Source: a virus. Taken from it: a stretch of DNA of 64,000 nt. Both the position numbers and the translations under genes were made by a program. The notes below the pieces were generated by a model that ran no database searches, was not told where the DNA came from, and was given only the letters and a program-made list of their open reading frames with translations. This document shows positions 2 through 36,887 of the stretch, in pieces. Each line of letters starts with the position of its first letter. Positions within the stretch are counted from its first letter, which is position 1. The DNA lies in IMG/VR virus record IMGVR_UViG_3300044957_000729; one strand, given 5' to 3'.

Positions 2-667
2 GGAGATCCTAATAAAATGCCTAGAGATTACCAAATAGAAACAGCTTGGAAGATAATAAAATTTAAACTTTCAGTTTCAGAAGTTGCAACAAGCTCAGGT
101 AAAACATTAATTGCTTTTATGGTAATGGCTTACCTAAAAGAGGTAATGAAAGTTAAGAAATTCTTAATGATTGTTCCTAATACGAATCTTGTTATACAAG
201 GATCTGAAGATTTTGAAGAATATGGACTTCAAAAATTAGAGGACTGTGAAATTCAACAGATACATGGAGCAAATAAGAAAAAAATATCTGGGGGATTAAT
301 GATAGGGACATATCAATCCCTTGTAAAGATGGATCCTGAATTTTTTGAAGATGTTGAAGCTGTGTTTGTTGATGAGTGTTTGCATCCAGATTCTTTAATA
401 ACTATATATGATGGATCTCTAAAAAAAATAAGCGATGTTAAAATAGGTGAAATGGTTTTAACTGTAAATAATAAAACAGGGGATATGGAATCTAAGCCGG
501 TTGATTTTGTTTATCATAATATGTCTAAAGATAATCAAATGTATGAGATAGAGACTGAATGCGGTAAGATATTAAAGGTCACGGGTAATCATAAATTGAG
601 ACTTTCTAATGGTGAATGGAAAGGAGTGGAAGATTTGAAAGATTCTGATGAGCTTTGGGATATATAA
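2..667 (+). CDS. uvsW: UvsW-like SF2 helicase, N-terminal part fused to an N-terminal split intein (5'-partial; frame open from the window start)
   Basis: PRDYQ Q-motif, Walker A ATSSGKT, motif Ia IVPNTNLV, then VFVDE directly followed by intein block A CLHPDSLI. Confidence 0.9.
   Translation, partial: GDPNKMPRDYQIETAWKIIKFKLSVSEVATSSGKTLIAFMVMAYLKEVMKVKKFLMIVPNTNLVIQGSEDFEEYGLQKLEDCEIQQIHGANKKKISGGLMIGTYQSLVKMDPEFFEDVEAVFVDECLHPDSLITIYDGSLKKISDVKIGEMVLTVNNKTGDMESKPVDFVYHNMSKDNQMYEIETECGKILKVTGNHKLRLSNGEWKGVEDLKDSDELWDI
377..664 (+). mobile_element. Split intein N-half (IntN) in UvsW
   Basis: Starts with Cys (CLHPDSLITIYDG), block B VTGNHKL, ends LKDSDELWDI-stop with no block F/G. Confidence 0.9.
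659..667 (+). promoter_or_regulatory. Putative late promoter GATATATA(A), overlapping the IntN stop codon
   Basis: The same motif occurs shortly upstream of many ORFs in the window; analogous to the T4 late promoter TATAAATA. Confidence 0.65.
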
Positions 668-680
668 TATTAAAAGAGCC

Positions 681-1517
681 ATGTGTAGCAATCAAATCAA
701 AAAACAAATTAATGAATATATAATCAAGAACAAAAAATTTATAACCCAATATAGAATGAGGGAAATATTAGATAAGGAAAAAAGAGCCTTATCTAATATT
801 AGACTTTTTTCCGGTATAGATATTCCAGATACAGTGGGCACTGTTAAATCGCTTTTATGTTTAATCGATGATAATAATGGTATATGTGAGATGGATGGAT
901 GTATTAACGAAAAGTCAAGGGATTCTGGTAGATGGGTGCTAAGAAAGTTTTGTAGTAGAAAGTGTGCAGATAGAGATTTTGCATTGAAACAATCTGGATT
1001 AGGAAATTCTTTTCATAAGATATCAGAGGAATCTAGGAAAAGTATGGGCGAAAAAATATCCGAAAAAATTAATAAGAAAATACTAAAAGGTGAATTCACA
1101 CCGAATATAACTAATTCTTGGTTAAATAGCAAGATATCTGTTAATATTAATGGCAAATTAAAATTTGTAAGATCATCTTGGGAAGCATATTTTTATATAT
1201 TAAACCCAGAACTTAGTTATAAATTAATAAGGATTCCTTATTTAGACAAAAAAACAAAAAAACCTAGGAATTATATAACGGATTTTTGTGATTTTACTAA
1301 TAAGATAATATACGAGATAAAACCTAAGACAAAAATTAAAGATAATCCTGAAAAAATAGAGAGCGCTAAAGAATGGTGTTCTCTAAATTTCTATTCTTAT
1401 GTGATAATAACACAAGATTGGATAATAGAGAGATATAATAAGAAATTATTAGAGAATCAACCGGAGGGTGAAAGAATATCGATGCTTATTGAAAAAATGA
1501 TAAAATATGAAAATTAA
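681..1517 (+). CDS. Free-standing homing endonuclease, PD-(D/E)XK / TnsA-like, between the UvsW intein halves
   Basis: Cys cluster FCSRKC, RSSWE motif, YITDF...IIYEIKP; likely start ATG 681 just after GATATATA at 659. Confidence 0.75.
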   Translation: MCSNQIKKQINEYIIKNKKFITQYRMREILDKEKRALSNIRLFSGIDIPDTVGTVKSLLCLIDDNNGICEMDGCINEKSRDSGRWVLRKFCSRKCADRDFALKQSGLGNSFHKISEESRKSMGEKISEKINKKILKGEFTPNITNSWLNSKISVNINGKLKFVRSSWEAYFYILNPELSYKLIRIPYLDKKTKKPRNYITDFCDFTNKIIYEIKPKTKIKDNPEKIESAKEWCSLNFYSYVIITQDWIIERYNKKLLENQPEGERISMLIEKMIKYEN

Positions 1518-2445
1518 ATCTATAAGAAAGATTAACAACGCTGAGGATGTTTATAATTTGAGAATAAAATCTGATGATGGAAATAATCATAATTATATAG
1601 CTAATGGAATCCTTGTAAGCAATTGTCACCAAGCTCAGAGTGCATCTATAAAGAAGGTTGTTGCAGTATGTAAAGATTCTAAATGGAGATTTGGATTATC
1701 TGGAACTCTAGCAAACAAAAACACCGCTGAATATCTAACAATCCAACAGTTTTTAGGTCCTCTAATAATGGAGATATCTCCCAAGTTTTTATTTGATAAC
1801 AAATATGCTACTCCGGTTTCAATTAAGATTGTAAAAATGGACTGGATGGATGACGAGATAAAGGAAAAGCTATCATCCCTTAAAGAGAACAAGACTGAAA
1901 TGGAAGGTAACGAGATTTTTAATTTGGAAAGAAAATTAGTTGTTGGCTCAGATAAAAGACTTAATTATATAATAGATTTTGTTCTCAAAACATCAAAGAA
2001 CTCATTAATACTTTTCCAATCTGTTGGAGAAGGTTACGGTAAGAAAATTTATGATGGAATAAGAGAAAGAACTAATGATAGAGAAGTCTACTATATTGAT
2101 GGAGATACAGATCCTGACAAGAGAGACATATTTACTAAGAGGATGGAAGAAGGGGTTAACAAAATAATGGTTGCTTCTTTTGGTACTATGTCCACTGGTA
2201 TATCTGTAAAAAATATTCATAATATATTCTTAACCGAATCATATAAGTCGGAGGTACTTATAAAACAGAGTTTAGGAAGGGGCATGAGATTGTTCGAGGG
2301 TAAGGAAAAAGTTAACATAATAGATTTCGTAGATGATTTTGCTTGGGGCGGAAAAGAGAACTATTTGCTAAAGCATTCGAAGGAAAGAATAGAAATTTAT
2401 AAAAGGGAACATTTCGATTATAAAATTTATAATGTCAAAATTTAG
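1507..2445 (+). CDS. uvsW: IntC (39 aa, 1507-1623) plus UvsW C-terminal part
   Basis: MKIKSIRKI...DVYNL...HNYIANGILVSN/C. Splicing restores DE-CH (DExH motif II). Also GLSGT motif III, STGISV and QSLGRGMR motif VI. Confidence 0.9.
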   Translation: MKIKSIRKINNAEDVYNLRIKSDDGNNHNYIANGILVSNCHQAQSASIKKVVAVCKDSKWRFGLSGTLANKNTAEYLTIQQFLGPLIMEISPKFLFDNKYATPVSIKIVKMDWMDDEIKEKLSSLKENKTEMEGNEIFNLERKLVVGSDKRLNYIIDFVLKTSKNSLILFQSVGEGYGKKIYDGIRERTNDREVYYIDGDTDPDKRDIFTKRMEEGVNKIMVASFGTMSTGISVKNIHNIFLTESYKSEVLIKQSLGRGMRLFEGKEKVNIIDFVDDFAWGGKENYLLKHSKERIEIYKREHFDYKIYNVKI

Positions 2446-2481
2446 GAAATAGGATATATAAAGTAGAAATAAAGAAATTTG

Positions 2482-3087
2482 ATGTATAAAATTAAAAACT
2501 TCAAGGATTTTTGCCAAATTAATGAGTCTAATGAGGAGCTTTTCTTCAGAAGACATTTGGGTGGAAATGCCTCTACTTATGATGATAGAGCTAAGAACCA
2601 TTATGATTTAGGCAGTAATCCCACTGTCCTACAGAAAACTCGAGACTTTTTCCAAAAAATGGAAAATAGAATAAACAGAGCGGCAGAAATAGGAAAGCAA
2701 CAGGTAAGACAAAACAGAGCAACAAGAACTCATGGGGGTCCAGACACAGGATTCGAGATGCTTTTTGGAGCTTTATCAGTTGTACCCAATGTGTTAAAAA
2801 GAGTATTTGGTCCTACTAAATATGAATTCACTAAAAAATCCCCTAGCGATGAGAAAGTGGATATAGAATTCATGAGACACACAAATGAAGACTTTGCACA
2901 AAATGAACTTCCCGCTATAAAAACGGAAGATCAATTAGCAGATCATATAGGAGATCTTTATAATAGAGGCGACGTAGTAATAGGACAAGTTCCTGTATTA
3001 GATGATATAGCTAGAAATAGGGTAAATCTCTATTATCAACATCAGGCAAACCCAGCTCAGCCTATATTCCAAACAAATAATGTATAA
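2482..3087 (+). CDS. Hypothetical protein with capsid-targeting-like N-terminus
   Basis: MYKIKNFKDFCQINES; GATATATA at about 2453. Confidence 0.6.
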   Translation: MYKIKNFKDFCQINESNEELFFRRHLGGNASTYDDRAKNHYDLGSNPTVLQKTRDFFQKMENRINRAAEIGKQQVRQNRATRTHGGPDTGFEMLFGALSVVPNVLKRVFGPTKYEFTKKSPSDEKVDIEFMRHTNEDFAQNELPAIKTEDQLADHIGDLYNRGDVVIGQVPVLDDIARNRVNLYYQHQANPAQPIFQTNNV

Positions 3088-3090
3088 AAA

Positions 3091-3936: not shown

Positions 3937-3941
3937 TAAAA

Positions 3942-4385
3942 ATGTTTGGACCTATACAAAGTACCGCACTTTATACGGTTTTACATCACTATACAGGATG
4001 TAAGATACATTCAATCTCACCCGACGGTGATGATTTTTCATTTAGAACATTTCTAGGAGAAAGAGGAATACTTACTGAAAATAATACTGGGAACTGGAAC
4101 ATTACTATAGGAAAAGAGCTTGTATACACGATCGAAAGGGATATCTTTAAGGTATTGATTAAGCCAGATAAAAAAAGCTCTTTAGAAGACTATATGGACA
4201 TATTAAATGATTTAAATAACAATCCAGACGTAAGCTATAGATCCAGGATTTTGGTAGTAAATATCATGAAATTTTTAGAGGAATATGTAATAAGTTCTGG
4301 TTTTGTCCCAAATAAAAATTTAAGGATAGGACCTCTTTTAATTTGTAATTTAAAAGGTAAAAAAATTATTAATTGTTTAAACTAA
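3942..4385 (+). CDS. Hypothetical protein
   Basis: 147-aa ORF in operon arrangement. Confidence 0.55.
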   Translation: MFGPIQSTALYTVLHHYTGCKIHSISPDGDDFSFRTFLGERGILTENNTGNWNITIGKELVYTIERDIFKVLIKPDKKSSLEDYMDILNDLNNNPDVSYRSRILVVNIMKFLEEYVISSGFVPNKNLRIGPLLICNLKGKKIINCLN

Positions 4386-6391
4386 TGGCTGGAATAAAAT
4401 ATTTAACGGACATATACGAAAAAAAAGGAAAGTCCTTTATTGAAAGCCTTTTCAATAAAAATTTAACTGTAACAGAAAATCTAGACGGTCCTTCTTTTTC
4501 TTTTGAAAGGGATTTTACTGGCGATAACATATCTTTCTATAAAAAGGATCAAGATAATCCTATAACCAAGGTGGATAGGATATTAATGAGATATTACGAA
4601 AAGCCTATAAGCTATATAGAATCTCTATCTCTTGAAATCACAGATCAGCTTCCTAAGGGATGGAGATTCGGAATGGTTTACTTTCCTAACAAAAAGCCAG
4701 TCAGAATTGAGTACGATAGGATACCAAAGAATCATCTTGTTTTAACACATGTTGTTGTTAGGGATGAATTCGGAGATATTATTAAAAATTTACAGGACAG
4801 AGACGAGCTCGATGAATGGGCAGACAAGTTAGGGGTTGAAAGATCGCCCATCATATTTCAAGGTAAACTTGACAGGGACCAAAAAATAGCTATAATGGAT
4901 TTCCTTTCTACTCCATTGGCAGATCTTAAGAATAAATTTCAGACCTCTAGTTTTAGTAACTATCTAATTTCAATCTTAAATAAAAATGTAGAAAGAACAA
5001 CACTCGGTAAGGATTTACAGGGGGAGATAGATTCTCTGGTTTTTAGATTCGAGGATGAAGACGGAAAGGAGGAAACTGTTTTAGCAAAAATGGTTGATCC
5101 TATTTTTCATGAGATAAACAGAAGCAGAAAAGTTACTCAAACATCTTATTTTCCTAGTGATGTTTATTCTTTGTGTCTTATAGATGTAATGAATTTTATA
5201 CTAGAGGAGGGGGTAGAAAACTTTATGGCTAAAGGTAATGACCCAGAGGAAAGATACATCAGTTTTGTTTTTGATGTATTTAAGAAGTTTGTATACGAGG
5301 AGGGTGATAAATATGTAGGTGCGGATTTTCAAAAACCAGAATACTTAAAAACCGAAGGATTTGAAATAAATAAGGATTTAATAACTGACGAAGAAATTTT
5401 AAAGTCTATAGAAGACGACGAAGTTTATATAGACATTTTACAAATGATCCTTAACTCTTTTAGAAAGCTTAAAAGAAAACCGCATGGATTTTTTACAGAG
5501 GGACTAATCCAGCAATTTAATATACTAATTGAAGATATTGCTAGCTATATAAACGCCAAAAAGAAAGATTTAGTTGAAGAGTCTTTAGGGGTTCCCAGCT
5601 TTGTTTGGTTTAAAAAAGCCGTTAGTAAATTTAATCCAATAATAAGTGATGAGTATGAAATAGACGAGCTAAAAGAAATAATAGAAGGCTCTTCTTCTGG
5701 AGAGATTACACCTCTTAATGAATCTGAAACTCCTGAGGTTATAACCGAAGATGAGCAGAAGGAAGAAGACGCTTCAGAATTTTTCTCCTTTAAAGATTTT
5801 AAAAAAGTAGTAGCTACTCACAAAGAAAAAAAGAAGATAAAGATATTAAACGAGAACAATCAGAAAGTAAATATAGTAATAGGTAAATTTCAGCCCTTTA
5901 ATAACGGACATTTAAAAATGTGTACAAGATTAAAGAAGGAAAATAATTTACCAGTATTTCTGTGTGTAGTTCATCCCCGGAGTGAGCCAGGATCTAAATA
6001 TCCATTCTCCGATGATTTAATAAAAAAATCCATAGGATCTTTAACATCAGAGAACAACAAACTTTTTGCAGGATATGAAATGATCCCGTCCAACCTTTTG
6101 GAGGATGCTCTAAATGCAGTAGTAAAACATGCTAATCCTGCTTCTATATGTATAGGTGAGAGAGATTTTGAAAATATGATTCTTCAAAGAGAATGGGTAA
6201 GGAATAAATATGATTTAGAGGGGGGAGATATAGAAATATACAAAACCCCGCAATGGTCAAATAATAATGATATTAGAACTTACATAAAAGATGGTGATTT
6301 CCAGCAATTTAAAGATAAAGTTCCAAAATCGATAGCAGTGCTTTTCAATGAATTTACTAAACAAATAAATGGATCTGAGGAAGATATATAA
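4385..6391 (+). CDS. Fusion of an RNA-ligase-like nucleotidyltransferase fold (degenerate) and a C-terminal HxGH cytidylyltransferase-like domain (degenerate)
   Basis: VTENLDG resembles ligase motif I (E-K-x-D-G) with K replaced by N; IGKFQPFNNGH resembles GRFQPxHxGH. Confidence 0.6.
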   Translation: MAGIKYLTDIYEKKGKSFIESLFNKNLTVTENLDGPSFSFERDFTGDNISFYKKDQDNPITKVDRILMRYYEKPISYIESLSLEITDQLPKGWRFGMVYFPNKKPVRIEYDRIPKNHLVLTHVVVRDEFGDIIKNLQDRDELDEWADKLGVERSPIIFQGKLDRDQKIAIMDFLSTPLADLKNKFQTSSFSNYLISILNKNVERTTLGKDLQGEIDSLVFRFEDEDGKEETVLAKMVDPIFHEINRSRKVTQTSYFPSDVYSLCLIDVMNFILEEGVENFMAKGNDPEERYISFVFDVFKKFVYEEGDKYVGADFQKPEYLKTEGFEINKDLITDEEILKSIEDDEVYIDILQMILNSFRKLKRKPHGFFTEGLIQQFNILIEDIASYINAKKKDLVEESLGVPSFVWFKKAVSKFNPIISDEYEIDELKEIIEGSSSGEITPLNESETPEVITEDEQKEEDASEFFSFKDFKKVVATHKEKKKIKILNENNQKVNIVIGKFQPFNNGHLKMCTRLKKENNLPVFLCVVHPRSEPGSKYPFSDDLIKKSIGSLTSENNKLFAGYEMIPSNLLEDALNAVVKHANPASICIGERDFENMILQREWVRNKYDLEGGDIEIYKTPQWSNNNDIRTYIKDGDFQQFKDKVPKSIAVLFNEFTKQINGSEEDI

Positions 6392-6402
6392 AACAACTTA
6401 TT

Positions 6403-7275
6403 ATGGGAATGAAAAGAATATTATCCTTCAACGATTTTGCTATTTTTGAGTATAAAGGATTTGATTATTTGGAACACAGAAATTTAAATGAAGCAATTTA
6501 TTTAGACGAAAGAAACAAAACACCACACGATCCCGCAGCTCTAAAGAAAATGAGGGCTTGTGTGTTTTTATTAAATGGATCATATCCATTTTTTGCATCG
6601 ATGCTATCTCGATTGATGATCAGAGAAAACAGAAATCTTAAATTTAAAACGATGGCAACTGACGGTGTTAGTATACACTATGATCCTGATTTTGTTCTTA
6701 ATCACAGTGATGCTGAGATAATTTGGGTTATTGCACATGAGGTTTTACATAATACCCTAGTTCACTTTTTAAGATGCCCTAAAGATAAAACAAAAGCAGG
6801 TGTATGGAACGTTGCAGCGGATTATGCACTTAATCAATTGTTAACTCCAATAGATCCTAGCACATTAAACACAACTAAACCTAAGCCAGCTACTAAAGGC
6901 GGTATAGGAAAAATGGTAGAAGGATCTTTATATCCTGGATGTGGTCACGTTCCTTACGACCACGAATTTGTAAATAGAGGAGCCGAATGGATTTACGAAA
7001 AACTTCTAGCTAATGGATATGTTCCTGAACCTGGAGATGATACAACTCCGCCTCCGTATCCACCTTCACCACCTCCACCACGGGATCCTGAAGTTGGTGA
7101 TATTATCTATGATAAAGATAATGATTCATATGGTATAATTAAATCTATAGATAATTCATTGGGTGAGCTTGAGTATGATCCTATACCAAAAAATAAGGTT
7201 AAAGAATACTTACAAAGAAAAGTTAATGATAAGAATATATTAGGAGATGATATAGAAAAAGAATTAGATTTCTGA
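6403..7275 (+). CDS. DUF2201-N-like HExxH metallopeptidase with capsid-targeting-like N-terminus
   Basis: PFFASML, TMATDG...YDPDF, AHEVLH, WNVAADYALN; N-terminus MKRILSFNDF. Confidence 0.8.
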   Translation: MGMKRILSFNDFAIFEYKGFDYLEHRNLNEAIYLDERNKTPHDPAALKKMRACVFLLNGSYPFFASMLSRLMIRENRNLKFKTMATDGVSIHYDPDFVLNHSDAEIIWVIAHEVLHNTLVHFLRCPKDKTKAGVWNVAADYALNQLLTPIDPSTLNTTKPKPATKGGIGKMVEGSLYPGCGHVPYDHEFVNRGAEWIYEKLLANGYVPEPGDDTTPPPYPPSPPPPRDPEVGDIIYDKDNDSYGIIKSIDNSLGELEYDPIPKNKVKEYLQRKVNDKNILGDDIEKELDF

Positions 7276-7322
7276 TTTAATATATTATGAAAGCTAAGAT
7301 AACAGTAAAAAGAATTTAAGAA

Positions 7323-9963: not shown

Positions 9964-9964
9964 G

Positions 9965-13634: not shown

Positions 13635-13940
13635 TTAGATTGATTCTTTCTTTTTGAGTTGTTCTAGATAGTCTTTCCAGACAAGTCCACCCTCTTTAAT
13701 TCCTGCTTTTTGAAATTTATGGAGCTCTGCTCTTTTAGACATTATATAGGAAGCTATAATTGCGTCCTTCAATTCTATTTCTTTTCGATCTAGCATTTCC
13801 TGAACCTTTTTAATTGATTTCATTGCTTCATCCCTGTTAGCAAATCTAAGGCCTGGGGTATACTTCCTTTCTCCGTCAAAAGGATTTACGTCTTTTAGGT
13901 ATACATCCTCGAATAATTTGAAAGATAGAATTTTTTTCAC
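13635..13940 (-). CDS. Hypothetical protein with capsid-targeting-like N-terminus
   Basis: MKKILSFKLFE (GTG start); AATATATA upstream on the minus strand. Confidence 0.55.
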   Translation of the reverse strand: MKKILSFKLFEDVYLKDVNPFDGERKYTPGLRFANRDEAMKSIKKVQEMLDRKEIELKDAIIASYIMSKRAELHKFQKAGIKEGGLVWKDYLEQLKKKESI

Positions 13941-13992
13941 CTATTATATATTCCTTTTTGAAACCTCTTCCCTACAACACTATAAAATAGAT

Positions 13993-15399
13993 ATGATCAT
14001 AGATATTGAGAATACAGGAAATGGATTATCTGTTTCACATTATACAGAGGAAGGAGAAGTTAATTTATTGAAAATTCAGGTACCAAAGCATCTACAATTT
14101 GTTTGGCAAAAAACATTGGAGAACGACAAAAGTAAAGATAAGGAATGGAGGTCGTGGGACAATTTTCCTGTGAAGAAAGTTAACACTAGTAAGTTTGACA
14201 AGTATAGGGTGGTAGAAATATTAGAAGCTATAGATCCTGAAATAACAAAACCCCTTTGGGATTACCAAACTCCAAAAAAATACTTTGTCGATATAGAGGT
14301 TGAAATCACGGATAATCGTGCAGATTCTTTAGATAATGAAAACTCTAAGAACCGGGTGCTTTCAATAGGAATGGCTTCTTCACAGGGAAAGATCCTTGTT
14401 ATTGGACTTGAAGATATTCTTCAGGATAAAATATTAAAAATAGAGAAAAGGATAAAGGAGCACTTTAAAGATCAAGCAGGGGAATGGACTTTTAATTATA
14501 GGAAGTTTGAGACTGAGTTTGATATGCTTTATACTTTCTTCTCTAAGCTAGTTCCTAAGATGCCTTTGATAACTGGGTGGAACTGGTTTGGATATGACTG
14601 GCCTTATCTTATCAATAGAGCAAAAAGATTAGGAATAGATCCAAAAATAGCTTCACCTAGTGGAATTCTCTTAGGAATGAATCAGATTCCGATGCACATT
14701 TTAATGGTTGACTATCTTGACATCTATAAGAAATGGGATAGGGTCATAAAGATCAGAGAATCTAACTCATTAGACTACGTTGCTAATCAAGCTATAGGAA
14801 TAAAAAAGATTTCTTATAGTGGAACATTAAAAGATTTATACGAATCAGATTTTGAGACATTTATCTTTTATAACGCAGTCGACTGTGCTTTAGTCCATTA
14901 TATAGATAAAAGGTTGGACACCCTTTCAACTTTCTTTAAAATTGCCGAAGTTAGTAGAGTGGAAATAAACAGAGCTTTATCCCCGGTATGGACTACTGAG
15001 GTACTGATGCTAAGAAAATTCTTGGAAAGAAAAAGAGTTATTGTCAACGAGAGAAAAGGAGAATCTCATGTAAAGTTTGAGGGAGCTTATGTTAAGAAGC
15101 CAGAGAAGGGATTATACGAATGGATTGCTTGTTTTGACTTTGCCTCCCTATATCCTAATACAATGATGCAATGGGGAATTTCTCCTGAGGCTTACATAGG
15201 AAAAAATCTAAAGGAAATACCTGAAGGAGCAATAAAGACCTCCTCGGGAGCAGTTTTTTATAATAAAGATGGGCAAGAACCTATACTTAGAGAAATATTG
15301 AAAGGACTTTATTCTCAAAGAAAAGCTACTAAGAAAAAATATTTTGAGTGTGAAAAGGAAATAGAAAAAATTAAAAAAGAAATAAAATTAAAATCATAA
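13993..15399 (+). CDS. polB: Family B DNA polymerase, N-terminal subunit (3'-5' exonuclease, motif A, first fingers helix)
   Basis: ExoI DIEVE, ExoII GWNWFGYDWPY, ExoIII YNAVD, motif A FDFASLYP; stops before motif B. Confidence 0.9.
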   Translation: MIIDIENTGNGLSVSHYTEEGEVNLLKIQVPKHLQFVWQKTLENDKSKDKEWRSWDNFPVKKVNTSKFDKYRVVEILEAIDPEITKPLWDYQTPKKYFVDIEVEITDNRADSLDNENSKNRVLSIGMASSQGKILVIGLEDILQDKILKIEKRIKEHFKDQAGEWTFNYRKFETEFDMLYTFFSKLVPKMPLITGWNWFGYDWPYLINRAKRLGIDPKIASPSGILLGMNQIPMHILMVDYLDIYKKWDRVIKIRESNSLDYVANQAIGIKKISYSGTLKDLYESDFETFIFYNAVDCALVHYIDKRLDTLSTFFKIAEVSRVEINRALSPVWTTEVLMLRKFLERKRVIVNERKGESHVKFEGAYVKKPEKGLYEWIACFDFASLYPNTMMQWGISPEAYIGKNLKEIPEGAIKTSSGAVFYNKDGQEPILREILKGLYSQRKATKKKYFECEKEIEKIKKEIKLKS

Positions 15400-23110: not shown

Positions 23111-23470
23111 ATGGATTTTGATGATTTTTATATAGCAAAAATCGGAGACCATACTTTCATATTAGAAGATTGCAAAGACTTTCCAAAAGGGCTTTCAGAA
23201 AGAGAGCATCTCCTCGAAAATGAGGGGATGCTTTTTAAGTTTAATGATCCTGGACATAGATCTTTTCATATGAAAGGATGTCTAATACCTTTGGATATTA
23301 TATTCATAAAAGGGGGTAAGATACAAAAAATATATCATAACTGTAATCCTTGCGAGCTTAATGAGTGCGAGCGGTTCGAACACGAGGATGCTGATACTGT
23401 AGTTGAACTTATGGGAGGTACATGCAAGAAAAATAGAATCAATGAGGGTTTAATTTATAGGCTTATGTGA
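23111..23470 (+). CDS. DUF192 family protein
   Basis: GLSERE...EGMLF...FHMKGCLIPLDIIFI...VVEL. Confidence 0.8.
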   Translation: MDFDDFYIAKIGDHTFILEDCKDFPKGLSEREHLLENEGMLFKFNDPGHRSFHMKGCLIPLDIIFIKGGKIQKIYHNCNPCELNECERFEHEDADTVVELMGGTCKKNRINEGLIYRLM

Positions 23471-24623
23471 TTTCTTGATTACTTTTAATTTTTTCTATGA
23501 TTTTATTAATTGTTAATTCTATTGTTTTTTCATTAGAATCGTCAGAAAATATTTCTATTACATCAAATCCTAATCTTTCCGCTATTTTATTTTTATAAAC
23601 ATCAAGATCTCTTTTTTCCTCTGCATTTAATCCCATGAAATTCCATTTGTCCCATTTATTCTTTTCCCATTTGGGATTGGGATGGTATCTTTTTCCGTGA
23701 TATTCTATAATTATTTTTAATTTTGGTATAGTAAAATCATAAAAAAATATTTTTTTTGAATCCTTATCATATAAAAAATATTCCTTAGATCCTGATATCC
23801 CCCAATATATCTCATTTATTTGTAAATACCTTCTAATTTTTTTGTATATTTTTTTAAATAGAATTAGGGATTCCTTAGATGTGTATGTATTGGAGCATCT
23901 TTTAATTATTGTTTCTGTGTATTTTTTATTTCCCTCTTCTTGTCCGTATCTGCTTATAAATCCATTAAGAGATTGAGAATTACTTAGATTTTTACACATA
24001 TTTTCATATCTTATCGTGCCCTCTATTTTTCCATATTTCTTAATTATTTTTTCTAGATCGAAAGTTTTCTGTAATTCTGAAACTTTTTTCTTTGCATCTT
24101 CCTCGGATATTTTTTCTTTTTTCATCCAGTATTCATATTGATTCCAAGTGACCCCATGATATTTTTTCCTTTTGGCTGAATTTTCTTTCTGTGTATCTTT
24201 TATTTTTAAAATTGCTTCTTTTTCAGATAGCCCCCTCTCTATCCAATATTCAATATTAAATTTTCTTTGTGATTTTATTTTATATTCTGCTTCCTCCTTG
24301 GTGTAATTGATCCCGGTCTTAGGATTTATTTTATTTTTCCAGTAATCTATTTGCATAGGACTTCCGTTCGGTATATTATTTACACGATTTTCTTGCCTTT
24401 TCAACAAGGAATCCTCTCTACTCCATCCTCTTTGTTCCCAGTATGTAATAGTAAATTTTCCAACTTTCATAAATCCTTTGTCCATTCTAAATTTTGATAA
24501 TATCTTATTAATGGATTGGCCGGTTTTAGGAGATTCTTTTTCTATTATAATTCTTAACTCCTCCTTATATTTTGGTGGAAGATCTATTAAAAATTTTTCT
24601 AATTCTATGTTTGATTTATTCAT
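23463..24623 (-). CDS. Free-standing homing endonuclease (Vsr/DUF559-like PD-(D/E)XK C-terminus, YW and YGxxEG repeats)
   Basis: FFYDFTIPKLKIIIEYHGKRYHPNP...D..K...GFDVIEI; architecture parallels 35745..36887. Confidence 0.75.
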   Translation of the reverse strand: MNKSNIELEKFLIDLPPKYKEELRIIIEKESPKTGQSINKILSKFRMDKGFMKVGKFTITYWEQRGWSREDSLLKRQENRVNNIPNGSPMQIDYWKNKINPKTGINYTKEEAEYKIKSQRKFNIEYWIERGLSEKEAILKIKDTQKENSAKRKKYHGVTWNQYEYWMKKEKISEEDAKKKVSELQKTFDLEKIIKKYGKIEGTIRYENMCKNLSNSQSLNGFISRYGQEEGNKKYTETIIKRCSNTYTSKESLILFKKIYKKIRRYLQINEIYWGISGSKEYFLYDKDSKKIFFYDFTIPKLKIIIEYHGKRYHPNPKWEKNKWDKWNFMGLNAEEKRDLDVYKNKIAERLGFDVIEIFSDDSNEKTIELTINKIIEKIKSNQEIT

Positions 24624-24718
24624 ATCTGCTAATGGATATTATATTTTTATATATCCATTAGAAGCAGAGAAACTTTTGATATATATATCATATAAATCTA
24701 ATAGATAAATATTAATTG

Positions 24719-28563: not shown

Positions 28564-28565
28564 AG

Positions 28566-29603: not shown

Positions 29604-29612
29604 ATTTAACTA

Positions 29613-29939
29613 ATGACGAATTTCTTTTTTTATATACTTGCAGTTTGGGGACTAACTCACATACTAGTAGCATCCAAAATAATGGAACCCACTAGAAATT
29701 GGCTTCTTATAAACGCTCCTTTTTTTGGAGATATGCTTAATTGCTACCAGTGCACTTCCTTTTGGTCATCTATGATTTTATACTTTATGTTTAATGATTT
29801 AAGTGTGGGTGGCCTTTATTTTTATCTTAATGAAATCAAAATAGGATTCGATTTCTTATTAATTTCTTTTATTGGATCTGGTATAGTGTCATTTATATCT
29901 ATAATAATGTCAATCCTGATAAATAAATCTAAAGGATAG
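29613..29939 (+). CDS. Membrane protein, DUF1360-like
   Basis: Hydrophobic helices with LNCYQCTSFW. Confidence 0.55.
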   Translation: MTNFFFYILAVWGLTHILVASKIMEPTRNWLLINAPFFGDMLNCYQCTSFWSSMILYFMFNDLSVGGLYFYLNEIKIGFDFLLISFIGSGIVSFISIIMSILINKSKG

Positions 29940-29956
29940 GTTTTGATATATACATT

Positions 29957-31462
29957 ATGGAAAGAAAAGTATTATCATTTAGCCAATTTTTAAATGAAGA
30001 AGAAACCGGAATAACCGGAGCCACGGGATCTTCGGATTCAGGAAATCTAGGTAGACCAGAAACTGAAAGGGAAGCAAAGTCGAGGATCGCAAAAAATATA
30101 GTACAATCTGTTTTTGGTGGTATAGGAGGAAGCGGCGGGGTTGATAGTTATATCGATCAAACTAAAGAAGTAAAAGAATCTTTACCTTACAAAGGATGCG
30201 GAGTATCTGATCCATATAAATTAGAGAAGACTCCTCTCTCTGTAATGACTATTAAATTGCTTCTTAACTATTTACAAGAGAAAAAAGTTGGTGACTATAC
30301 GAGAGTTATAAACGAACTAAATGAGAAGAGAGCGGTAATAATTGGTATAAGAAATAGAATAGCAACAAAAAAAGAAAGCTCAAATCAAGATAGATTTTGT
30401 GATGCCTTATATTTCATACCAGGTAATGCAAAAGATGGAACCGAAAGTGCTGGCGCTACAGGAGCTACGGGAGCTACTGGAGCATCGTCTGGTTTTATGC
30501 AGCAAAAGAAAAATGAATCTCTGTCCCTTTACAACTACATAGAACAAAGAATAACGGAATTAGAAACTGTTTCTGAATCTGGACTTTGGACATTTGAGGA
30601 TTTTTCTCGGATGAATGAAGAAAGAGAATTTTTAATTAAAAATAGGGATCTTTTAGAGTCAGGAGAAATATCAGAGAATGATTTCTTAGAGTTATACGAG
30701 GATATCTTAGGAATAGGAGGATTTCTTAAAGGAGCTTGGGATAAAGGAAAACAAGCAGCTAACTGGGTAGGTAGGAAACTTGGATTGGTCGATGATAAAC
30801 CTAAAACTGGGAAAGTTGATATGGATAGCGAGGACAATACTAAATCTCCCTCACAACAACAATCTGGTGCTACCGGAACTACTGGACCAACACCCCCGTC
30901 AGACTTGGGGGATAAAATTGAACCCTATCAAATAACAACAGTTGCTAGCTTAGCTTACTATGGTAAAAAGCCTATGAATCCTAAAGGTGTAGGTATTAAG
31001 CTACCCGGGGATACTCTTTATGTATTGCAGGAAAGTACATTGGGAGGAAAAACTAAATATAAGATGATGGTGGAGGCCGAAAAAATTAAAGTAGGCCGAT
31101 ATCCTATAGGGGTTACTAAATATGAAACATATAAACCAGCTGAAACATACACTGAAAGCTGCGGAATGCAAATACATAGATCATCAACTAAAGGCGTAGG
31201 AGTTTGTATAGGACCTTGGTCAGCAGGATGCCAAGTATTTTCTGATTATACTGAATGGCAAGAATTTATATCTAAAGCTGAAAAGGAATCGATGAATGCC
31301 TCAAAATTCCTATATGGATTAATCCAACTGGACGACATACCAGAGGAAGTATTAAAGTCTGCAATAATCGGTTTACCATATAGTCCTCAACAAGAACAAC
31401 AACCTGTTGCCCAAAACAGATCTGGGAAAGACGTAAGAAAGGTCGGTTTCAGCGAGGAATAG
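29957..31462 (+). CDS. Capsid-targeted-like protein with an L,D-transpeptidase-like (H...SxGC) domain and GAT repeats
   Basis: MERKVLSFSQFLNEE; IIGIR, RFCD, GMQIHRS...WSAGCQVF. Confidence 0.6.
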   Translation: MERKVLSFSQFLNEEETGITGATGSSDSGNLGRPETEREAKSRIAKNIVQSVFGGIGGSGGVDSYIDQTKEVKESLPYKGCGVSDPYKLEKTPLSVMTIKLLLNYLQEKKVGDYTRVINELNEKRAVIIGIRNRIATKKESSNQDRFCDALYFIPGNAKDGTESAGATGATGATGASSGFMQQKKNESLSLYNYIEQRITELETVSESGLWTFEDFSRMNEEREFLIKNRDLLESGEISENDFLELYEDILGIGGFLKGAWDKGKQAANWVGRKLGLVDDKPKTGKVDMDSEDNTKSPSQQQSGATGTTGPTPPSDLGDKIEPYQITTVASLAYYGKKPMNPKGVGIKLPGDTLYVLQESTLGGKTKYKMMVEAEKIKVGRYPIGVTKYETYKPAETYTESCGMQIHRSSTKGVGVCIGPWSAGCQVFSDYTEWQEFISKAEKESMNASKFLYGLIQLDDIPEEVLKSAIIGLPYSPQQEQQPVAQNRSGKDVRKVGFSEE

Positions 31463-31489
31463 AAACTTTAATCCGGTATTCCAGTATAA
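31462..31489 (+). promoter_or_regulatory. Putative middle promoter class GAAA(C/T)-N16-18-TATAA, representative copy
   Basis: Copies at 13960, 21287, 24669, 31462, 40707, 49486(-) and 56843(-), several before replication genes. Confidence 0.55.
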
Positions 31490-31513
31490 TTTTCATCAGC
31501 GAAAATATTTTAG

Positions 31514-32074
31514 GTGGACAAAAGGATAACAATTTCAGATCAGATAAATCAGGATTACCGTAAGTACGCATTATACGTTATTCAAAGCAGGGGCATCCCG
31601 AATTTCTACGATGCACTAACCCCTGTACAAAGATTAATTCTTCAGAATTCCCCAAGCATTTTTAAAAAAACTGTTGGTGTTATAGGTGGGGTTTTTAGTA
31701 CTGGCCTATATCATCACGGAGACTGCGTTTCTGGGGATACAAAAATAGAATTGGCAGATGGGGGTCAGATTAGAATAGAAGACTGGTACGATAAAAATCC
31801 GGGTTGTGATCTTTTAGTTTCTTGTATAGATACAGATACAGGTGAAAAGACTTTTGGAGTTGGTCATTCACCTAGGATAGGACAAATTAATGACGAATTA
31901 ATTGAGCTCGAATTAGAGAGTTGCGAAATAATTAAATGTACTAGGAATCATCCCTTTTATGTAAATTCTACTTGGATTAAGGCCGAGGATCTTGAGGAGG
32001 GAATGGATATAAAAGATTTTTATCATCACGCTGGATATATAAATATAAACATCCATGATGATAAAGAAATGTAA
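31514..32074 (+). CDS. Topoisomerase II small (GyrA-like) subunit N-part plus IntN (31724-32071)
   Basis: YALYVIQSRGIP, DALTPVQR, YHHGD, then CVSGDTKI; block B CTRNHPF. Confidence 0.9.
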   Translation: MDKRITISDQINQDYRKYALYVIQSRGIPNFYDALTPVQRLILQNSPSIFKKTVGVIGGVFSTGLYHHGDCVSGDTKIELADGGQIRIEDWYDKNPGCDLLVSCIDTDTGEKTFGVGHSPRIGQINDELIELELESCEIIKCTRNHPFYVNSTWIKAEDLEEGMDIKDFYHHAGYININIHDDKEM

Positions 32075-32924
32075 ATCGTGCGGGAATGATTTTGAGTCAG
32101 ATCTAAATCTTAACCAGTATTGCACAACAAAATGTAGATCTCGGGATAAATTCTTCAAAATACAAAACGAGGGAAAGTCTTTTAATGTATGGAAAAAAAA
32201 TTACGAGAAATACCCCGAATTTTATAATTCCCTTTCTAGTTATAAAGATAGGTATAAGAATAAGTGCTTCATCTGCGGGAAAGAATATGAAAATTTTAGT
32301 ATGTGTTGCTCTAAGGAATGTTCTTTAGCAATGAAAAATTATTCTACTTTTTTAACTACTGGATCCAATCATAATTTATCTAGGAATTCAATATCAAGAA
32401 AGAATATGGAGAAATCTTTATATGAGAAATATGTTGTCAATAATGTTTTTTCTAGAGATGATGTTTTAAATAAGCTTAAGGAAACATGGGTTAAAAAATA
32501 TGGATATATTAATCTTTCTAAGGTTGATTATATAAAAAATAAAAAAAGATCAACTGCAGAAAAAAATGGATTTTGGGCTCCTAAAGAAACGATGGATTTA
32601 AAAAATATTTATGACGAGAACGTTTATAATATTACATGGAGTCAAATGAAAAGGTTTTCTACAATTAAATTTGGCAATGATATATGGAAAAAGATAAATG
32701 ATTCTAAAAATCTTAAACAATCTGAATGGCTTACAGTTGATCATAGATATTCAAGATCTAAAGGATTTATAGATGGTATATCTCCAGAAATAATAGGACA
32801 TATATGTAATCTTGAGATTATTAATTTCGGGGATAATCGTAAAAAAAATAGTAAATGCTCGGTTACAATGGACCAATTAATCAAGGAGATAAATGAATTT
32901 GATAAAATAGTTTATAAAAAATGA
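32055..32924 (+). CDS. Free-standing HNH-type endonuclease with Zn-finger and KYG repeats, between the topoisomerase intein halves
   Basis: CKSC/CTTKC, CFIC/CSKEC, TVDHRYS...HICNLEII...NRKKNSKC. Confidence 0.75.
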   Translation: MMIKKCKSCGNDFESDLNLNQYCTTKCRSRDKFFKIQNEGKSFNVWKKNYEKYPEFYNSLSSYKDRYKNKCFICGKEYENFSMCCSKECSLAMKNYSTFLTTGSNHNLSRNSISRKNMEKSLYEKYVVNNVFSRDDVLNKLKETWVKKYGYINLSKVDYIKNKKRSTAEKNGFWAPKETMDLKNIYDENVYNITWSQMKRFSTIKFGNDIWKKINDSKNLKQSEWLTVDHRYSRSKGFIDGISPEIIGHICNLEIINFGDNRKKNSKCSVTMDQLIKEINEFDKIVYKK

Positions 32925-34243
32925 GGATAAAGAAAATTAATAGGATAAAGTTAGAATCCCCTTCTGCTTTTTATGATATTACTGTAGAAAAATATCACAA
33001 TTTTATCATAGGTGACTCGAAAATAGTTTGTCATAATTCATCAATGGCTCAAGCAATATCCAAACTTGCGAGACCTTTTTCTTGTGCTGAACAGATATTA
33101 TTGGGTGATGGATTTTTTGGAAGTCCAGTTAATCCTGTACCTTCAGCTCCTAGATATACTCAGGTAAAGATCTCCAGTAAATACAAAGATATAATAGAAA
33201 AATATAAGGATCTAAATGTTCCCAATGAGGAGGGTGGATTTGATTGGATCCATGTTGACTATCCTGTGGGTCTTTCCACTCACATTGTTGGGATAGCAGT
33301 TGGATATAAGTCTAATGTGCTTCCCCGAAAGCCTGAAGACATAGTTGCATACTTAACTGGAAATAAATCTAAGAAATTAAAACCATATTTTAGAGGATTT
33401 AAAGGAAAGGTAACAAAAATGGATTCTCTTAAATCTGCTTGGCTTATAGAAGGGGACACTGAAATAGATGTTACAACTAGAACATTCAAGATAAACTCTA
33501 TATCACCCCTTCAGAGATATGAATCTTTTTTTATTAGGCTCAACAACATTCTGGAAAGAAAATCCCTTAATTACAAGATGGATAATTTCTCAACTGATGA
33601 AGTTAAGATCACGATAAAGTTTAGATGCACAGATCAGGAATTTAAGGAAGTCTCAGATCTAATAGCTAAAGAAACAAAACAGATAGTTACTGAAAATATA
33701 GTTTTCGTGCGGGACGGATCAGTCTTGGAATATGATTGTATAGAAGATTATTTAGAAGACTTCATTGTACACAGGGAAAGAACTATTTTAAAAAGATATG
33801 AGAGGGATCTACTTTATCTTGACGATGAATTAGAATTCTTGGAAGCCAAGGTTAAATTTCTTATTTTTATGCAGGAAAAGAAGAGAGGTGATGATGAGGT
33901 TTCAGCATTTCTTAGTGGTTATAAAAAGGAAATATCCAGAAGACTAGAATCCATATCTTTAATAAAGCTAACAAAAGAGGAAATAATTAAGACAAAAGAA
34001 GAAATTAATTCCATAAAATCCGATATAAAGATTAAGAACCAAGAAATAAAGAAACAAAGGGATAGAGTTAAAGTTGTTGAAAAAGAAAATTCTTTATTAA
34101 AAAAGAAAACGACTTCAAGAACAACTTCACTCTTAGGAGAAGTAAAAGAAGAATTTCATAATGGAATAAGAATATTTGATCCAGAAGAAGAAATAATAGA
34201 AGAAGTAGAACAAGAAAACGAATTAAATATAGAAAATGAGTAA
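32921..34243 (+). CDS. IntC (39 aa, 32921-33037) plus topoisomerase II small subunit C-part with the catalytic Tyr
   Basis: MRIKKINRI...FYDITVEKYHNF...VCHN/S. Splicing restores YHHGD-SS. Also GFFGS, APRYT, GIAVGY. Confidence 0.9.
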   Translation: MRIKKINRIKLESPSAFYDITVEKYHNFIIGDSKIVCHNSSMAQAISKLARPFSCAEQILLGDGFFGSPVNPVPSAPRYTQVKISSKYKDIIEKYKDLNVPNEEGGFDWIHVDYPVGLSTHIVGIAVGYKSNVLPRKPEDIVAYLTGNKSKKLKPYFRGFKGKVTKMDSLKSAWLIEGDTEIDVTTRTFKINSISPLQRYESFFIRLNNILERKSLNYKMDNFSTDEVKITIKFRCTDQEFKEVSDLIAKETKQIVTENIVFVRDGSVLEYDCIEDYLEDFIVHRERTILKRYERDLLYLDDELEFLEAKVKFLIFMQEKKRGDDEVSAFLSGYKKEISRRLESISLIKLTKEEIIKTKEEINSIKSDIKIKNQEIKKQRDRVKVVEKENSLLKKKTTSRTTSLLGEVKEEFHNGIRIFDPEEEIIEEVEQENELNIENE

Positions 34244-35003
34244 GAAACAAGCAACTTTGAATTTTAGGATTACTAATCCTACCAATTTTATGTCTTTCCT
34301 TAAAAAATTAAAATTGGTAGACAAAAGCGTTCCTTTAGAAATAGAAGGAGGAAATTTATTTGCTAAAGTTAGAACCCCTGACAAATCTGTTTTAAAATAT
34401 GTGAGCGTAGATATCAATGAAATACTGGAGGGAGACTTTCCTCCAAATAGATTAAAAATAGGTATTCTTGAGATAAGTAAGTTAATCGATGTTTTTAAAT
34501 ATTTTGGGCCGGAAGAAGAACTTAACTTGACAGTTGATTCCCAGTCTTATGATTCAGATCTAATCGCAACGGGATTAAAATTCTCTTCCTCATCATTAAA
34601 CATATTTGTTAAGTGTGCAGATATAAGTTTACTTGCTTATATAGACGATAATATACAAAGACAGATACATTCAACTGAAGGATCGCAAGTTAATTTTGAA
34701 ATATCAAAAGAAAACTTCCAAAAAGTATCTTTATTAACGGGAATAGAATCTAACTCTGAAGAACTACTAAATTTTGATATCGAAGAAAACGGGGTGACTA
34801 TCAGAGGAAATTCATTCCAATACAATTTAATAAAAGGCAAAAAGCCTAATGGATTTTCTAGCTCTAGTGTTTATACAATCTACAAAAACCAATTCTCTTA
34901 TATAGATCAGGAAAATTCGGAGATACACTTTCATGACAATAGAATATTAGTTAAATCAACGGAATCAGATTCTATAATAGCAATAGGTTTAGTAGAGGTA
35001 TAA
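34236..35003 (+). CDS. Sliding clamp (gp45/PCNA-like)
   Basis: 255 aa, IGILEISKLIDV segment, directly upstream of the polymerase gene. Confidence 0.6.
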   Translation: MSKKQATLNFRITNPTNFMSFLKKLKLVDKSVPLEIEGGNLFAKVRTPDKSVLKYVSVDINEILEGDFPPNRLKIGILEISKLIDVFKYFGPEEELNLTVDSQSYDSDLIATGLKFSSSSLNIFVKCADISLLAYIDDNIQRQIHSTEGSQVNFEISKENFQKVSLLTGIESNSEELLNFDIEENGVTIRGNSFQYNLIKGKKPNGFSSSSVYTIYKNQFSYIDQENSEIHFHDNRILVKSTESDSIIAIGLVEV

Positions 35004-35004
35004 T

Positions 35005-35727
35005 ATGGAAGAAGTAGATTACATGTCAATGAGCTTGGAAGAGCTCAATAAAAAACTGCAGGAATATCAACAAAAATCCTCCGACTTTTATAACACTGAA
35101 CAAGGTATTAAATTAACTCTTAACAGTATATATGGAGCGACAGGAAACCAGTACTTTGCACTTTTCAATCCCGATGTAGCAGAAAGTGTAACTCTACAAG
35201 GACAGGACATATGGAGATTTGCTGAGAAGATAATTAACAAGTACTTCACCGAGATGTGGCACCTTGATAGTGAATTACACGAAAAAATGGGGGTCGCTAA
35301 TGTTAGGCCTCTAAATTTAGATTTTGTTGTCTACGGGGATACTGATTCGGTTTTTTCCAGATCTAAGATAATGATAATGAATAACTTGGGTGAAAAAAAA
35401 GAAATTGAAATTGGGGAATTTTTTAATGAATTAGCTGAATCGGAGGATATTTTATTAGACGATAAGGGTAATCATATTATAGAAACAAAAGGGTTTTTCT
35501 CGCTTAATTCAATTGATGAAGAATTAAGATATTCCCCGATAAAAAAAATAATAAGACACAAAGTAAGAAAGCCTAAATGGAAAATAACTACAGAATCTGG
35601 TAAAGAAGCTATAGTAACTAATGACCACTCCTTGACTGTTTTTAGATTCGGTAAAAAAATTCATATTAAGCCTTCTGAAATAAATTTAGAAACTGATAAA
35701 ATTTTATCAGTTGATGCTGATATATAA
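35005..35727 (+). CDS. polB: DNA polymerase B second subunit, N-part (motif B to YGDTD) plus IntN (35347-35724)
   Basis: KLTLNSIYG, VTLQGQ, YGDTD, then SVFSRSKI; block B VTNDHSL; ends ADI-stop. Confidence 0.9.
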   Translation: MEEVDYMSMSLEELNKKLQEYQQKSSDFYNTEQGIKLTLNSIYGATGNQYFALFNPDVAESVTLQGQDIWRFAEKIINKYFTEMWHLDSELHEKMGVANVRPLNLDFVVYGDTDSVFSRSKIMIMNNLGEKKEIEIGEFFNELAESEDILLDDKGNHIIETKGFFSLNSIDEELRYSPIKKIIRHKVRKPKWKITTESGKEAIVTNDHSLTVFRFGKKIHIKPSEINLETDKILSVDADI

Positions 35728-35744
35728 TATATAAAAAATATTAT

Positions 35745-36887
35745 ATGGAGACGCAAATATTGAAGTCGTTGGTTAAAAGGTATAATAAAGAAAGAACCCG
35801 TGAAAATTGGGATCTTTTAGAAACTCATATAGAGGATAAGCATTTTTGTAAGGACTGTGGTGGATCTATATTTTATGAGAATTCGGTAATTAGAGTTTCT
35901 AGGGAAGGTTCTTTATATTATGATCCTACTATGACCTCTTGTAAAACATATAAAAAAATAGAGGATAGTATTTACTATCTAAATGTTTGTCGGGATTGTA
36001 TTGGTAAGAAGTTCCCAGAATATCTTAAAATGAATCGATCCAGAGTTTTCAATGTGATGAATAAAATTACTATATACGCTTTTGATATTCCAGAATATGA
36101 GGCTAAAAAATTTACCAAAACCACTGCAGTAACGCTAGAAAACTTAACTAATAAATATGGAGAATCAGAGGGATTAAAAAGATGGGAAAGATATAGAAAA
36201 TTACAATCTCTAACAAATACTTTTGAATACAAGAAAGAAAAATATGGGTGGGGAGAAAAAGAATTCAACGATTTTAATAAATCACGTGCAGTTACTCTTA
36301 AAAATATGATTAAAAAATATGGGGAAGAGAAGGGGGTCCGCATTTTTAATGAATACCTAGAAAAACAAAAGGTCAACGGAAAATCAATTTCTTGGTTCTT
36401 AGAAAAACACGGGGAGGAGATAGGTAGAAGAATTTTTAAAGAAATGCTACAAGGTAAGCTAAAAGGCATTAACTGTGTTGTAAATTCTAAACCAGCGGGA
36501 GAATTTTTTGCTAGAATTGAAAATCTTCTTGAAGATAGATTTGAAATTTATTATTTTAATAAAAATTTCGAATTTGAAGTTGTAATAGAAGAAATCGGAA
36601 ATGTTTATTATCTCGATTTTTTTATTAAAGAATTAAATGTTTGTATAGAATTTTTCAGTGATTATTACCATGCTAATCCAAAAAAATATAAAGATCCTGA
36701 GGCACTAATTAAATTTTCTAGGATTCATAAGGTTTCTGAAATTTGGGATAGGGATAAAAAAAGAATTCAAAATCTTGAAAAATATAAAGCAATAAAAACT
36801 ATAGTAGTTTGGGAATCCGACTATTATAAAAACAAAGATAACGAGGATTTTTACAAGAAAATAATTAAACAATGTATAGAGAAATAG
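35745..36887 (+). CDS. Free-standing Vsr/DUF559-like endonuclease between the PolB intein halves
   Basis: CKDC zinc motif, KYGESEG/KYGEEKG repeats, YLDFFIKELNVCIEFFSDYYHANP...VVWESD. Confidence 0.8.
   Translation: METQILKSLVKRYNKERTRENWDLLETHIEDKHFCKDCGGSIFYENSVIRVSREGSLYYDPTMTSCKTYKKIEDSIYYLNVCRDCIGKKFPEYLKMNRSRVFNVMNKITIYAFDIPEYEAKKFTKTTAVTLENLTNKYGESEGLKRWERYRKLQSLTNTFEYKKEKYGWGEKEFNDFNKSRAVTLKNMIKKYGEEKGVRIFNEYLEKQKVNGKSISWFLEKHGEEIGRRIFKEMLQGKLKGINCVVNSKPAGEFFARIENLLEDRFEIYYFNKNFEFEVVIEEIGNVYYLDFFIKELNVCIEFFSDYYHANPKKYKDPEALIKFSRIHKVSEIWDRDKKRIQNLEKYKAIKTIVVWESDYYKNKDNEDFYKKIIKQCIEK

Follow-up and report, generated by a model that had tools for sequence, protein, structure and literature searches.

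Stop codons of split inteins overlap a putative late-type promoter motif in the fractured genes of an uncultured T4-like phage

The window analyzed here is a stretch of 64,000 nucleotides (nt) from IMG/VR record IMGVR_UViG_3300044957_000729, an uncultured T4-like phage whose whole contig measures 148 kb (~51% complete according to CheckV); megablast of the window against cultured phages returned no match. Three replication genes of this phage, encoding a UvsW-like DECH helicase, a topoisomerase II subunit (DNA_topoisoIV type), and the polymerase PolB, are each divided into three same-strand open reading frames (ORFs): the N-terminal part of the replication protein with an N-intein, a nuclease, and a C-intein with the C-terminal part. 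These loci are textbook 'fractured genes', in which a free-standing homing-nuclease gene interrupts a split intein. A copy of the motif GATATATAA stands shortly before each nuclease gene, and at two of the three loci the TAA of this motif is also the stop codon of the N-intein.

All three N-inteins show intein hallmarks, beginning with Cys or Ser and containing a TxxH block B, and are matched by the Pfam profiles Hint, Intein_splicing, and PT-HINT, in some cases below the cut-off. The C-inteins end in (H/S)N followed by a Cys/Ser nucleophile, after which the host protein resumes. When the exteins are joined, VSN/CHQ restores DECH in UvsW and VHN/SNY restores YGDTDS in PolB. The 3' end of each nuclease gene overlaps the C-intein ORF (Table 1), and PHROGs families exist for such fractured-gene pieces (phrog_16259, phrog_9690, phrog_27191). 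The three nucleases represent three families. For nuclease 2, no Pfam match was obtained; relatives were absent from IMG/VR, and two were found in metagenomes. The tblastn matches of nuclease 3 are genes annotated as 'VSR endonuclease' in Tenacibaculum phage PTm1 and the Aeromonas Aes phages. PolB is present in three pieces, its N-terminal part being located 20 kb upstream of the intein-split middle and C-terminal parts.

Table 1 Coordinates of the three fractured genes, related genes, and control copies of the motif in the window
Feature	Position	Strand	Evidence
UvsW-like helicase N-terminal part + N-intein (VFVDE/CLHPDS...TGNH...ELWDI-stop)	2..667	+	Pfam ResIII, DEAD, Hint, Intein_splicing; phrog_16259; translation
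GATATATAA at UvsW; TAA 665-667 is the N-intein stop	659..667	+	sequence
Nuclease 1, free-standing, PD-(D/E)xK (TnsA/Vsr-like)	681..1517	+	Pfam Tn7_TnsA-like_N 29.3 bits, above cut-off; phrog_15427 'endonuclease' 4e-26
C-intein (39 amino acids, ...GILVSN/CHQ) + helicase C-terminal part; 11-nt overlap with nuclease end	1507..2445	+	Pfam, PHROG, translation
Topoisomerase II (DNA_topoisoIV-type) N-terminal part + N-intein (HHGD/CVSGD...TRNH...)	31514..32074	+	Pfam, PHROG, translation
GATATATAA at topoisomerase, out of the N-intein frame	32034..32042	+	sequence; arrangement kept in L120, L121
Nuclease 2, free-standing; HNH-like DH...N...N near C-terminus	32055..32924	+	motif read from translation; weak PHROG 'homing endonuclease' match
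C-intein (...KIVCHN/SS) + topoisomerase C-terminal part; 4-nt overlap (ATGA) with nuclease end	32921..34243	+	Pfam, PHROG, translation
PolB middle part + N-intein (YGDTD/SVFSRS...TNDH...SVDADI-stop)	35005..35727	+	Pfam, PHROG, translation
GATATATAA at PolB; TAA is the N-intein stop; also 5' arm of a weak hairpin pairing the nuclease AUG	35719..35727	+	sequence, folding
Nuclease 3, free-standing, Vsr-like	35745..36887	+	phrog_22677 1.7e-44
C-intein (...HILVHN/SNY) + PolB C-terminal part; 16-nt overlap with nuclease end	36872..37855	+	Pfam, PHROG, translation
PolB N-terminal part (exonuclease domain + start of polymerase domain)	13918..15399	+	domain + PHROG matches
Free-standing Vsr-like paralogue of nuclease 3 (gene 23463-24623); motif 32 nt upstream (24647-24655)	23463..24655	-	phrog_22677 7.8e-16; 27% identity over 138 amino acids
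Control motif copy; TAA ends an ordinary 672-amino-acid gene (4373-6391), 20 nt before the DUF2201_N gene	6383..6391	+	
Control motif copy 22 nt ahead of the following gene; TAA closes an HNH_3 endonuclease gene (58330-57842)	57842..57850	-	

The coincidence of motif and stop codon had been pointed out in an earlier, sequence-only reading of the window, and its description of the three junctions is correct. The UvsW ORF ends with TGG GAT ATA TAA (W-D-I-stop) inside the motif, and the PolB ORF ends likewise with GCT GAT ATA TAA (A-D-I-stop). In the topoisomerase ORF, the motif is read as GGA TAT ATA AAT and contains no stop; the N-intein tail extends across the motif to a point 20 nt inside the nuclease ORF, and the stop (32072-32074) lies 38 nt past the motif start (about 40 nt in that reading). 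The distances from the motif start to the nuclease ATG (681, 32055, and 35745) are 22, 21, and 26 nt, respectively, matching the given range of 21–26 nt. That reading went on to propose that the motif is the nuclease's own late promoter, that promoter and nuclease insert together into an intein loop as a mobile cassette, and that the TAA thereby converts a contiguous intein to a split one in a single step. Under this proposal, expression of the C-half might also increase late in infection.

The motif itself is not confined to the nucleases. The window contains 18 copies of GATATATAA, 16 of them on the + strand, compared to 2.24 expected (none of 100 shuffles reached 18), and the whole contig contains 22. 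Across the contig, it is a strand-specific, fixed 9-mer without conserved flanks that lies 12–32 nt before the start codons of many genes, and most leaders downstream of it show no evident Shine-Dalgarno sequence. These genes include those for a head maturation protease (phrog_207, 5e-38), fibre-like proteins, an OmpA-domain protein, and an AAA ATPase, in addition to the minus-strand Vsr-like paralogue of nuclease 3; the idea of a promoter belonging to the nucleases is thus not sustained. The layout of GATATATAA, a short A/T-rich -10-like element with no -35 element, directly upstream of virion-type genes, fits that of T4-type late promoters. Related contigs that share the fractured genes are enriched in the motif relative to a reversed-pattern control (20 vs 3, 9 vs 1, and 17 vs 9), and the related contigs G003 and G005 encode a late sigma factor of the gp55 family (phrog_234; 9.7e-15 and 8.4e-9). 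In distant homologues, the position just before the nuclease is occupied by TATAAATA or NATAAATA, the late promoters of T4 and cyanophages. From these observations, it is a reasonable inference that the motif is a lineage-wide, general late-type promoter-like element and the positional equivalent of TATAAATA in T4.

Given the many leaders that lack a Shine-Dalgarno sequence, an unusual initiation signal is conceivable, and GATATATAA could in principle be some other upstream signal, such as an RNA-processing, translation, nuclease, or recombination site. We consider this extremely unlikely, because the 9-mer is fixed and strand-specific but has neither conserved flanks nor a constant distance to the ATG, because established late promoters hold the orthologous positions, and because the lineage encodes a gp55-family factor. 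A scan of positions 29500-38500 for sigma-70 promoters and intrinsic terminators found nothing above shuffled sequences.

To place the stop-promoter overlap in context, ordinary junctions were compared with those of the inteins. At four copies in this genome, the gene upstream ends in the motif TAA; these are the two inteins and two ordinary junctions (the control copies in Table 1), and several other genes stop 0–8 nt before GATATATAA. One of the three frames of the motif (GAT ATA TAA) closes, and finding two of three inteins in that frame has a probability of p = 0.26; when all ORFs that enter GATATATAA are counted, four of seven end at its TAA (p = 0.17). The in-frame coincidence at two of the three inteins is not statistically remarkable. 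In a T4 control (135 kb analyzed), there are 16 copies of TATAAATA with both a downstream and an upstream ORF. At five of these ordinary late junctions the TAA of TATAAATA is the upstream stop, and at one more the stop overlaps the motif end. Because T4 shows the overlap at 6/16 ordinary junctions, it is a general feature of compact T4-like genomes.

Homologous junctions were then surveyed using 80 IMG/VR loci with Vsr-like nuclease relatives. An N-intein ORF lies upstream of the nuclease in 76 of them, almost all at the same PolB site, yielding 61 unique junctions; these share descent, so the counts are not independent. The T4-type subset comprises 32 junctions with ATAAATA located 8–60 nt before the nuclease ATG. 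In 19 of these, promoter and N-intein stop overlap, the stop being the motif TAA in 11, the last TA of the motif plus a purine in seven, and a TGA on the 5' edge in one. The stop is located 1–3 nt upstream in four others and further upstream in another four, and the remaining five read through in the third frame. At the 23 junctions in which the ORF enters the motif, the three frames are represented 11:7:5, which is compatible with chance (p = 0.30).

In the GATATATAA dialect, D-I-stop is kept in the PolB orthologues L013 to L015 and in the UvsW orthologues L123 to L125. The ending in a deeper UvsW clade is N-I-stop, located inside AATATATAA or TATAAATA, such that one or the other ending persists across the UvsW clade down to ~40% nuclease identity. 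Among other UvsW orthologues, L122 has a decayed motif with D-L-Y-stop, and L127 stops 30 nt upstream. For the topoisomerase, three phages retain the read-through tail. Two orthologues (L160 and L161, from G003 and G001) have TAA or TAATAA 17–19 nt upstream of the motif, then a conserved TTTTATCATCACG, then the motif itself. The motif TAA is the stop in none of these five phages, the stops lying 17–19 nt before or 32 nt after the motif; because they stop before or after it, splitting of the intein does not require the motif. In UvsW and PolB, the motif TAA terminates the N-intein as the sequence-only reading describes, and orthologues conserve this.

Does the overlap represent a selected design, in which a mobile promoter-nuclease cassette ends the N-intein at the promoter (for hairpin formation or a short tail) and enables fracture in one step? 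The two motif-ending inteins of this genome and the persistence of the ending in the UvsW clade speak for it, as does a comparison in which stops overlap the promoter or lie within 3 nt of it in 23/32 T4-type PolB junctions and 10/36 pooled controls (p = 0.014). However, the near-random frames with five third-frame read-throughs, and the topoisomerases that either read through (three phages) or stop before the motif (two), speak against it. No stop-promoter overlap was found at the PolB junctions of Aeromonas phage Aes509 and phage PTm1, and the ordinary T4 junctions do not differ significantly from the PolB set in overlap frequency (p = 0.22). A design with stops in all three frames at the 5' edge of the cassette was considered and rejected, since all frames are closed locally in only 3/31 junctions, like in the T4 controls; selection for an in-frame stop was likewise rejected on the frame distribution given above. 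Taken together, we judge a selected design to be unlikely.

Predicted RNA structures at the nuclease starts vary among the loci. At the topoisomerase junction, a conserved stem (-10.85 kcal/mol) covers AUGAUG, and at the PolB junction the motif pairs with AUAUUAUAUG in a weak hairpin. TTTTATCATCACG, the 5' arm of the hairpin over the topoisomerase nuclease start, is translated as the N-intein tail in the lineage of the window. Separately, strong conservation is seen at the T4-type PolB junctions L051-L114 in a leader (...ATGGNGATAGGAGTATCNNCAT ATG) some 30 nt ahead of the nuclease start that forms a stem with the Shine-Dalgarno sequence AGGAG in the loop and shows apparent compensatory changes (e.g., ATGG/CCAT vs ACGG/CCGT). 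This stem probably corresponds to hairpins presented in Figure 4A of Dassa, London, Stoddard, and Pietrokovski (2009, NAR 37:2560; PMC2677866).

Contiguous alleles provide information about the boundaries of the inserts. In Campylobacter phage CC_R7, PolB is a single ORF of 1035 amino acids, and this site holds an uninterrupted mini-intein. Its N-lobe can be aligned as far as DDILILT and its C-lobe from nine residues further on, which corresponds to the linker where the insert sits. In PolB of the window, the motif begins two codons past the homologous KILSV. The alignment and this position together place the promoter at the very left edge of the insert, in agreement with the proposed insertion of a cassette into an intein loop; a promoter-like motif occupies this edge in each of the three nuclease inserts. 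In Pseudomonas phage PA5oct, this PolB site holds a Hef-like nuclease. The relative G003 (L159, G003:C1:1555-4890, minus strand 1501-2649) has an intein-less, contiguous ORF for the PolB middle and C-terminal parts (382 amino acids); it shares GATATATAA and the fractured uvsW and topoisomerase genes, revealing a presence/absence polymorphism of the PolB intein-nuclease unit. In L017 and L018 (IMGVR_UViG_3300028832_000094 and 3300037512_001110), two PolB ORFs are separated by a Vsr-like nuclease homologue, and intein halves are absent, the downstream ORF beginning just before GGDTDS, and this arrangement looks like an intein-less fracture. All these alleles fit an invasion by free-standing nuclease genes, as put forward by Dassa et al., but they do not prove the order of events.

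The same alleles bear on a second alternative, in-situ fission, whereby bifunctional inteins were split by point mutations that created the stop, promoter, and start without cassette invasion. The nucleases do occupy the canonical position of an intein nuclease domain, and conversion between the two states is discussed by Dassa et al. On the other hand, the nucleases are of free-standing PD-(D/E)xK/Vsr-like or HNH-like types, a solitary paralogue with the same promoter exists elsewhere in the genome, PolB of L017 appears to be split by a homologous Vsr-like nuclease in the absence of an intein, a different nuclease occupies the same site in PA5oct, and both mini-intein and intein-less alleles exist. 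This makes in-situ fission very improbable as the origin of these loci.

The explanation that we favor, with a probability of roughly 80%, is that these are fractured genes in which the insert starts at or just before a general late-type promoter and the position of the N-intein stop is set by the reading frame. The insert would begin essentially at the promoter or a few bases before it, and an N-intein with no stop of its own would enter the insert and terminate where its frame first meets a stop. For one of the three frames, this stop would be the promoter TAA, giving D-I-stop as in UvsW and PolB; otherwise, the frame would continue, as in topoisomerase. Selection that maintains the promoter would also preserve an in-frame TAA as the stop. 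Because the pieces are not separated by any terminator-like site, read-through transcripts of the early or middle phase may encode all three ORFs, to which the motif would add late transcripts starting just before the nuclease and covering nuclease and C-half. On read-through RNA, the nuclease may be silenced by a hairpin in which its start codon pairs with sequence close to the promoter, as in T4 I-TevI and Aeh1 mobE, and trans-splicing of the halves would then restore each enzyme. The promoter-stop overlap is therefore best explained as a frame-dependent by-product of a known arrangement and not as a new mechanism.

The N-intein ORFs reach the promoter in 24/32 T4-type PolB junctions, compared to 6/16 ordinary T4 upstream genes (p = 0.025, with homologous, non-independent junctions), an excess that fits an N-intein without its own stop. 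Several points count against this explanation or qualify it. The excess agrees with the cassette model but could hide some selection. No consensus hairpin is predicted at the UvsW junction, and the fold z-scores of single sequences are weak. tblastn with T4 gp55 and gp45 found nothing significant in this ~51%-complete contig, leaving it without a detected gp55 homologue, and the terms 'promoter' and 'late' derive from position, the types of genes downstream, and positional equivalence.

A more far-reaching version would treat the in-frame promoter TAA as an evolutionary lock that keeps the intein split, since the promoter is needed for nuclease expression; late-promoter cassettes containing TAA would then be pre-adapted 'gene breakers' able to fracture any intein or gene in one step. 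If true, it would account for the higher frequency with which N-intein ORFs, compared to ordinary genes, extend to the promoter; we regard it as doubtful. Irrespective of this, the genome adds three naturally split inteins of one phage (helicase, topoisomerase, and polymerase) to the known stock. Protein-ligation tools such as gp41-1 came from natural split inteins. GATATATAA also represents a putative non-canonical dialect of late promoters in an uncultured lineage of phages, and the survey provides sequence-level support for the 2009 model in which the invading nuclease element supplies the stop codon.

Additional features of the window concern the motif and its neighbors. The UvdE UV-endonuclease gene (27303-28220; Pfam 1.8e-48) contains an internal copy of GATATATAA at 27917, and another copy, at 39105, is internal to ORF 38311-39177 and precedes a DUF5856/rI.-1-like gene by 92 nt. 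A DUF2201_N/VWA-like (CobT-like) protein is apparently split over the adjacent ORFs 6403-7275, covering DUF2201_N profile positions 16-102, and 7323-8327, covering positions 202-261 and the VWA-like domain. The gene that follows (8362-9963) encodes a MoxR/CobS-like AAA_5 ATPase, and motif copies are located at 6383 and 8333. ORF 6403-7275 was considered as a fourth nuclease cassette due to its PHROG label 'HNH endonuclease'; its Pfam match is to DUF2201_N, and it was not counted. Several genes preceded by the motif in 42339-51775 (e.g., 45001 and 47220) have A-rich leaders without Shine-Dalgarno sequences. These leaders, and a Tenacibaculum phage as nearest cultured relative, suggest a Bacteroidota-type host.

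The arrangement is closest to the fractured genes of Dassa et al. According to PMC2677866, the 5' end of an invading nuclease element makes the stop codon, its 3' end creates the downstream start, and the nuclease promoter may transcribe the downstream gene; ten loci have TATAAATA inside a hairpin upstream of the nuclease. The one-step cassette model of the sequence-only reading is thus already published. As here, those genes consist of N-extein with N-intein, a free-standing Vsr-like (or other) nuclease whose 3' end overlaps the C-intein start, and C-intein with C-extein, with a T4-type late promoter element upstream of the nuclease. The upstream hairpins described there are conserved here only at topoisomerase, weak at PolB, and absent at UvsW. 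Unlike that set, a uvsW-like helicase, topoisomerase II, and PolB are all fractured in one genome, and the dialect is GATATATAA instead of TATAAATA. The overlap between stop codon and promoter is not pointed out in the searched text of PMC2677866, and a search of the accessible literature collection found no explicit statement that late promoters overlap stop codons; the overlap is a small added detail to the published model.

With respect to PolB, split gp43 genes in Aeromonas phages (JN377902 and relatives), Tenacibaculum phages PTm1 and PTm5, Lak megaphages, and PA5oct are interrupted at the same site after YGDTD, the inserted nuclease being a Vsr-like homologue except in PA5oct. A three-piece PolB with intein halves is also annotated in GenBank for PTm1, in which, unlike here, a long spacer follows the N-intein stop. 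In Aes509, annotated in GenBank with gp43A, gp43B1 (N-intein), a VSR endonuclease, and gp43B2 (C-intein), the three PolB pieces are adjacent, unlike the distant N-terminal part in the window, and the N-intein stop overlaps the nuclease start without a late-promoter motif.

The proposed regulation of the nucleases would resemble that of T4-type homing nucleases described by Edgell, Gibb, and Belfort (2010; PMC2988022), in which I-TevI, I-TevII, I-TevIII, segB, and Aeh1 mobE are under a late promoter combined with a start-site hairpin, such that promoter-region sequence pairs with the start region and only late transcripts are translatable. As in the I-Tev, segB, and mobE cases, the nuclease genes here probably lie in early or middle units with their own (predicted) late promoter directly upstream, and comparable stems are predicted at the topoisomerase and PolB junctions. 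They differ in their weak, AT-rich stems, with none predicted for UvsW, and in leaders without a clear Shine-Dalgarno sequence. The ordinary late junctions of T4 share the use of the promoter TAA as the upstream stop, whereas their upstream genes are complete and not intein halves.

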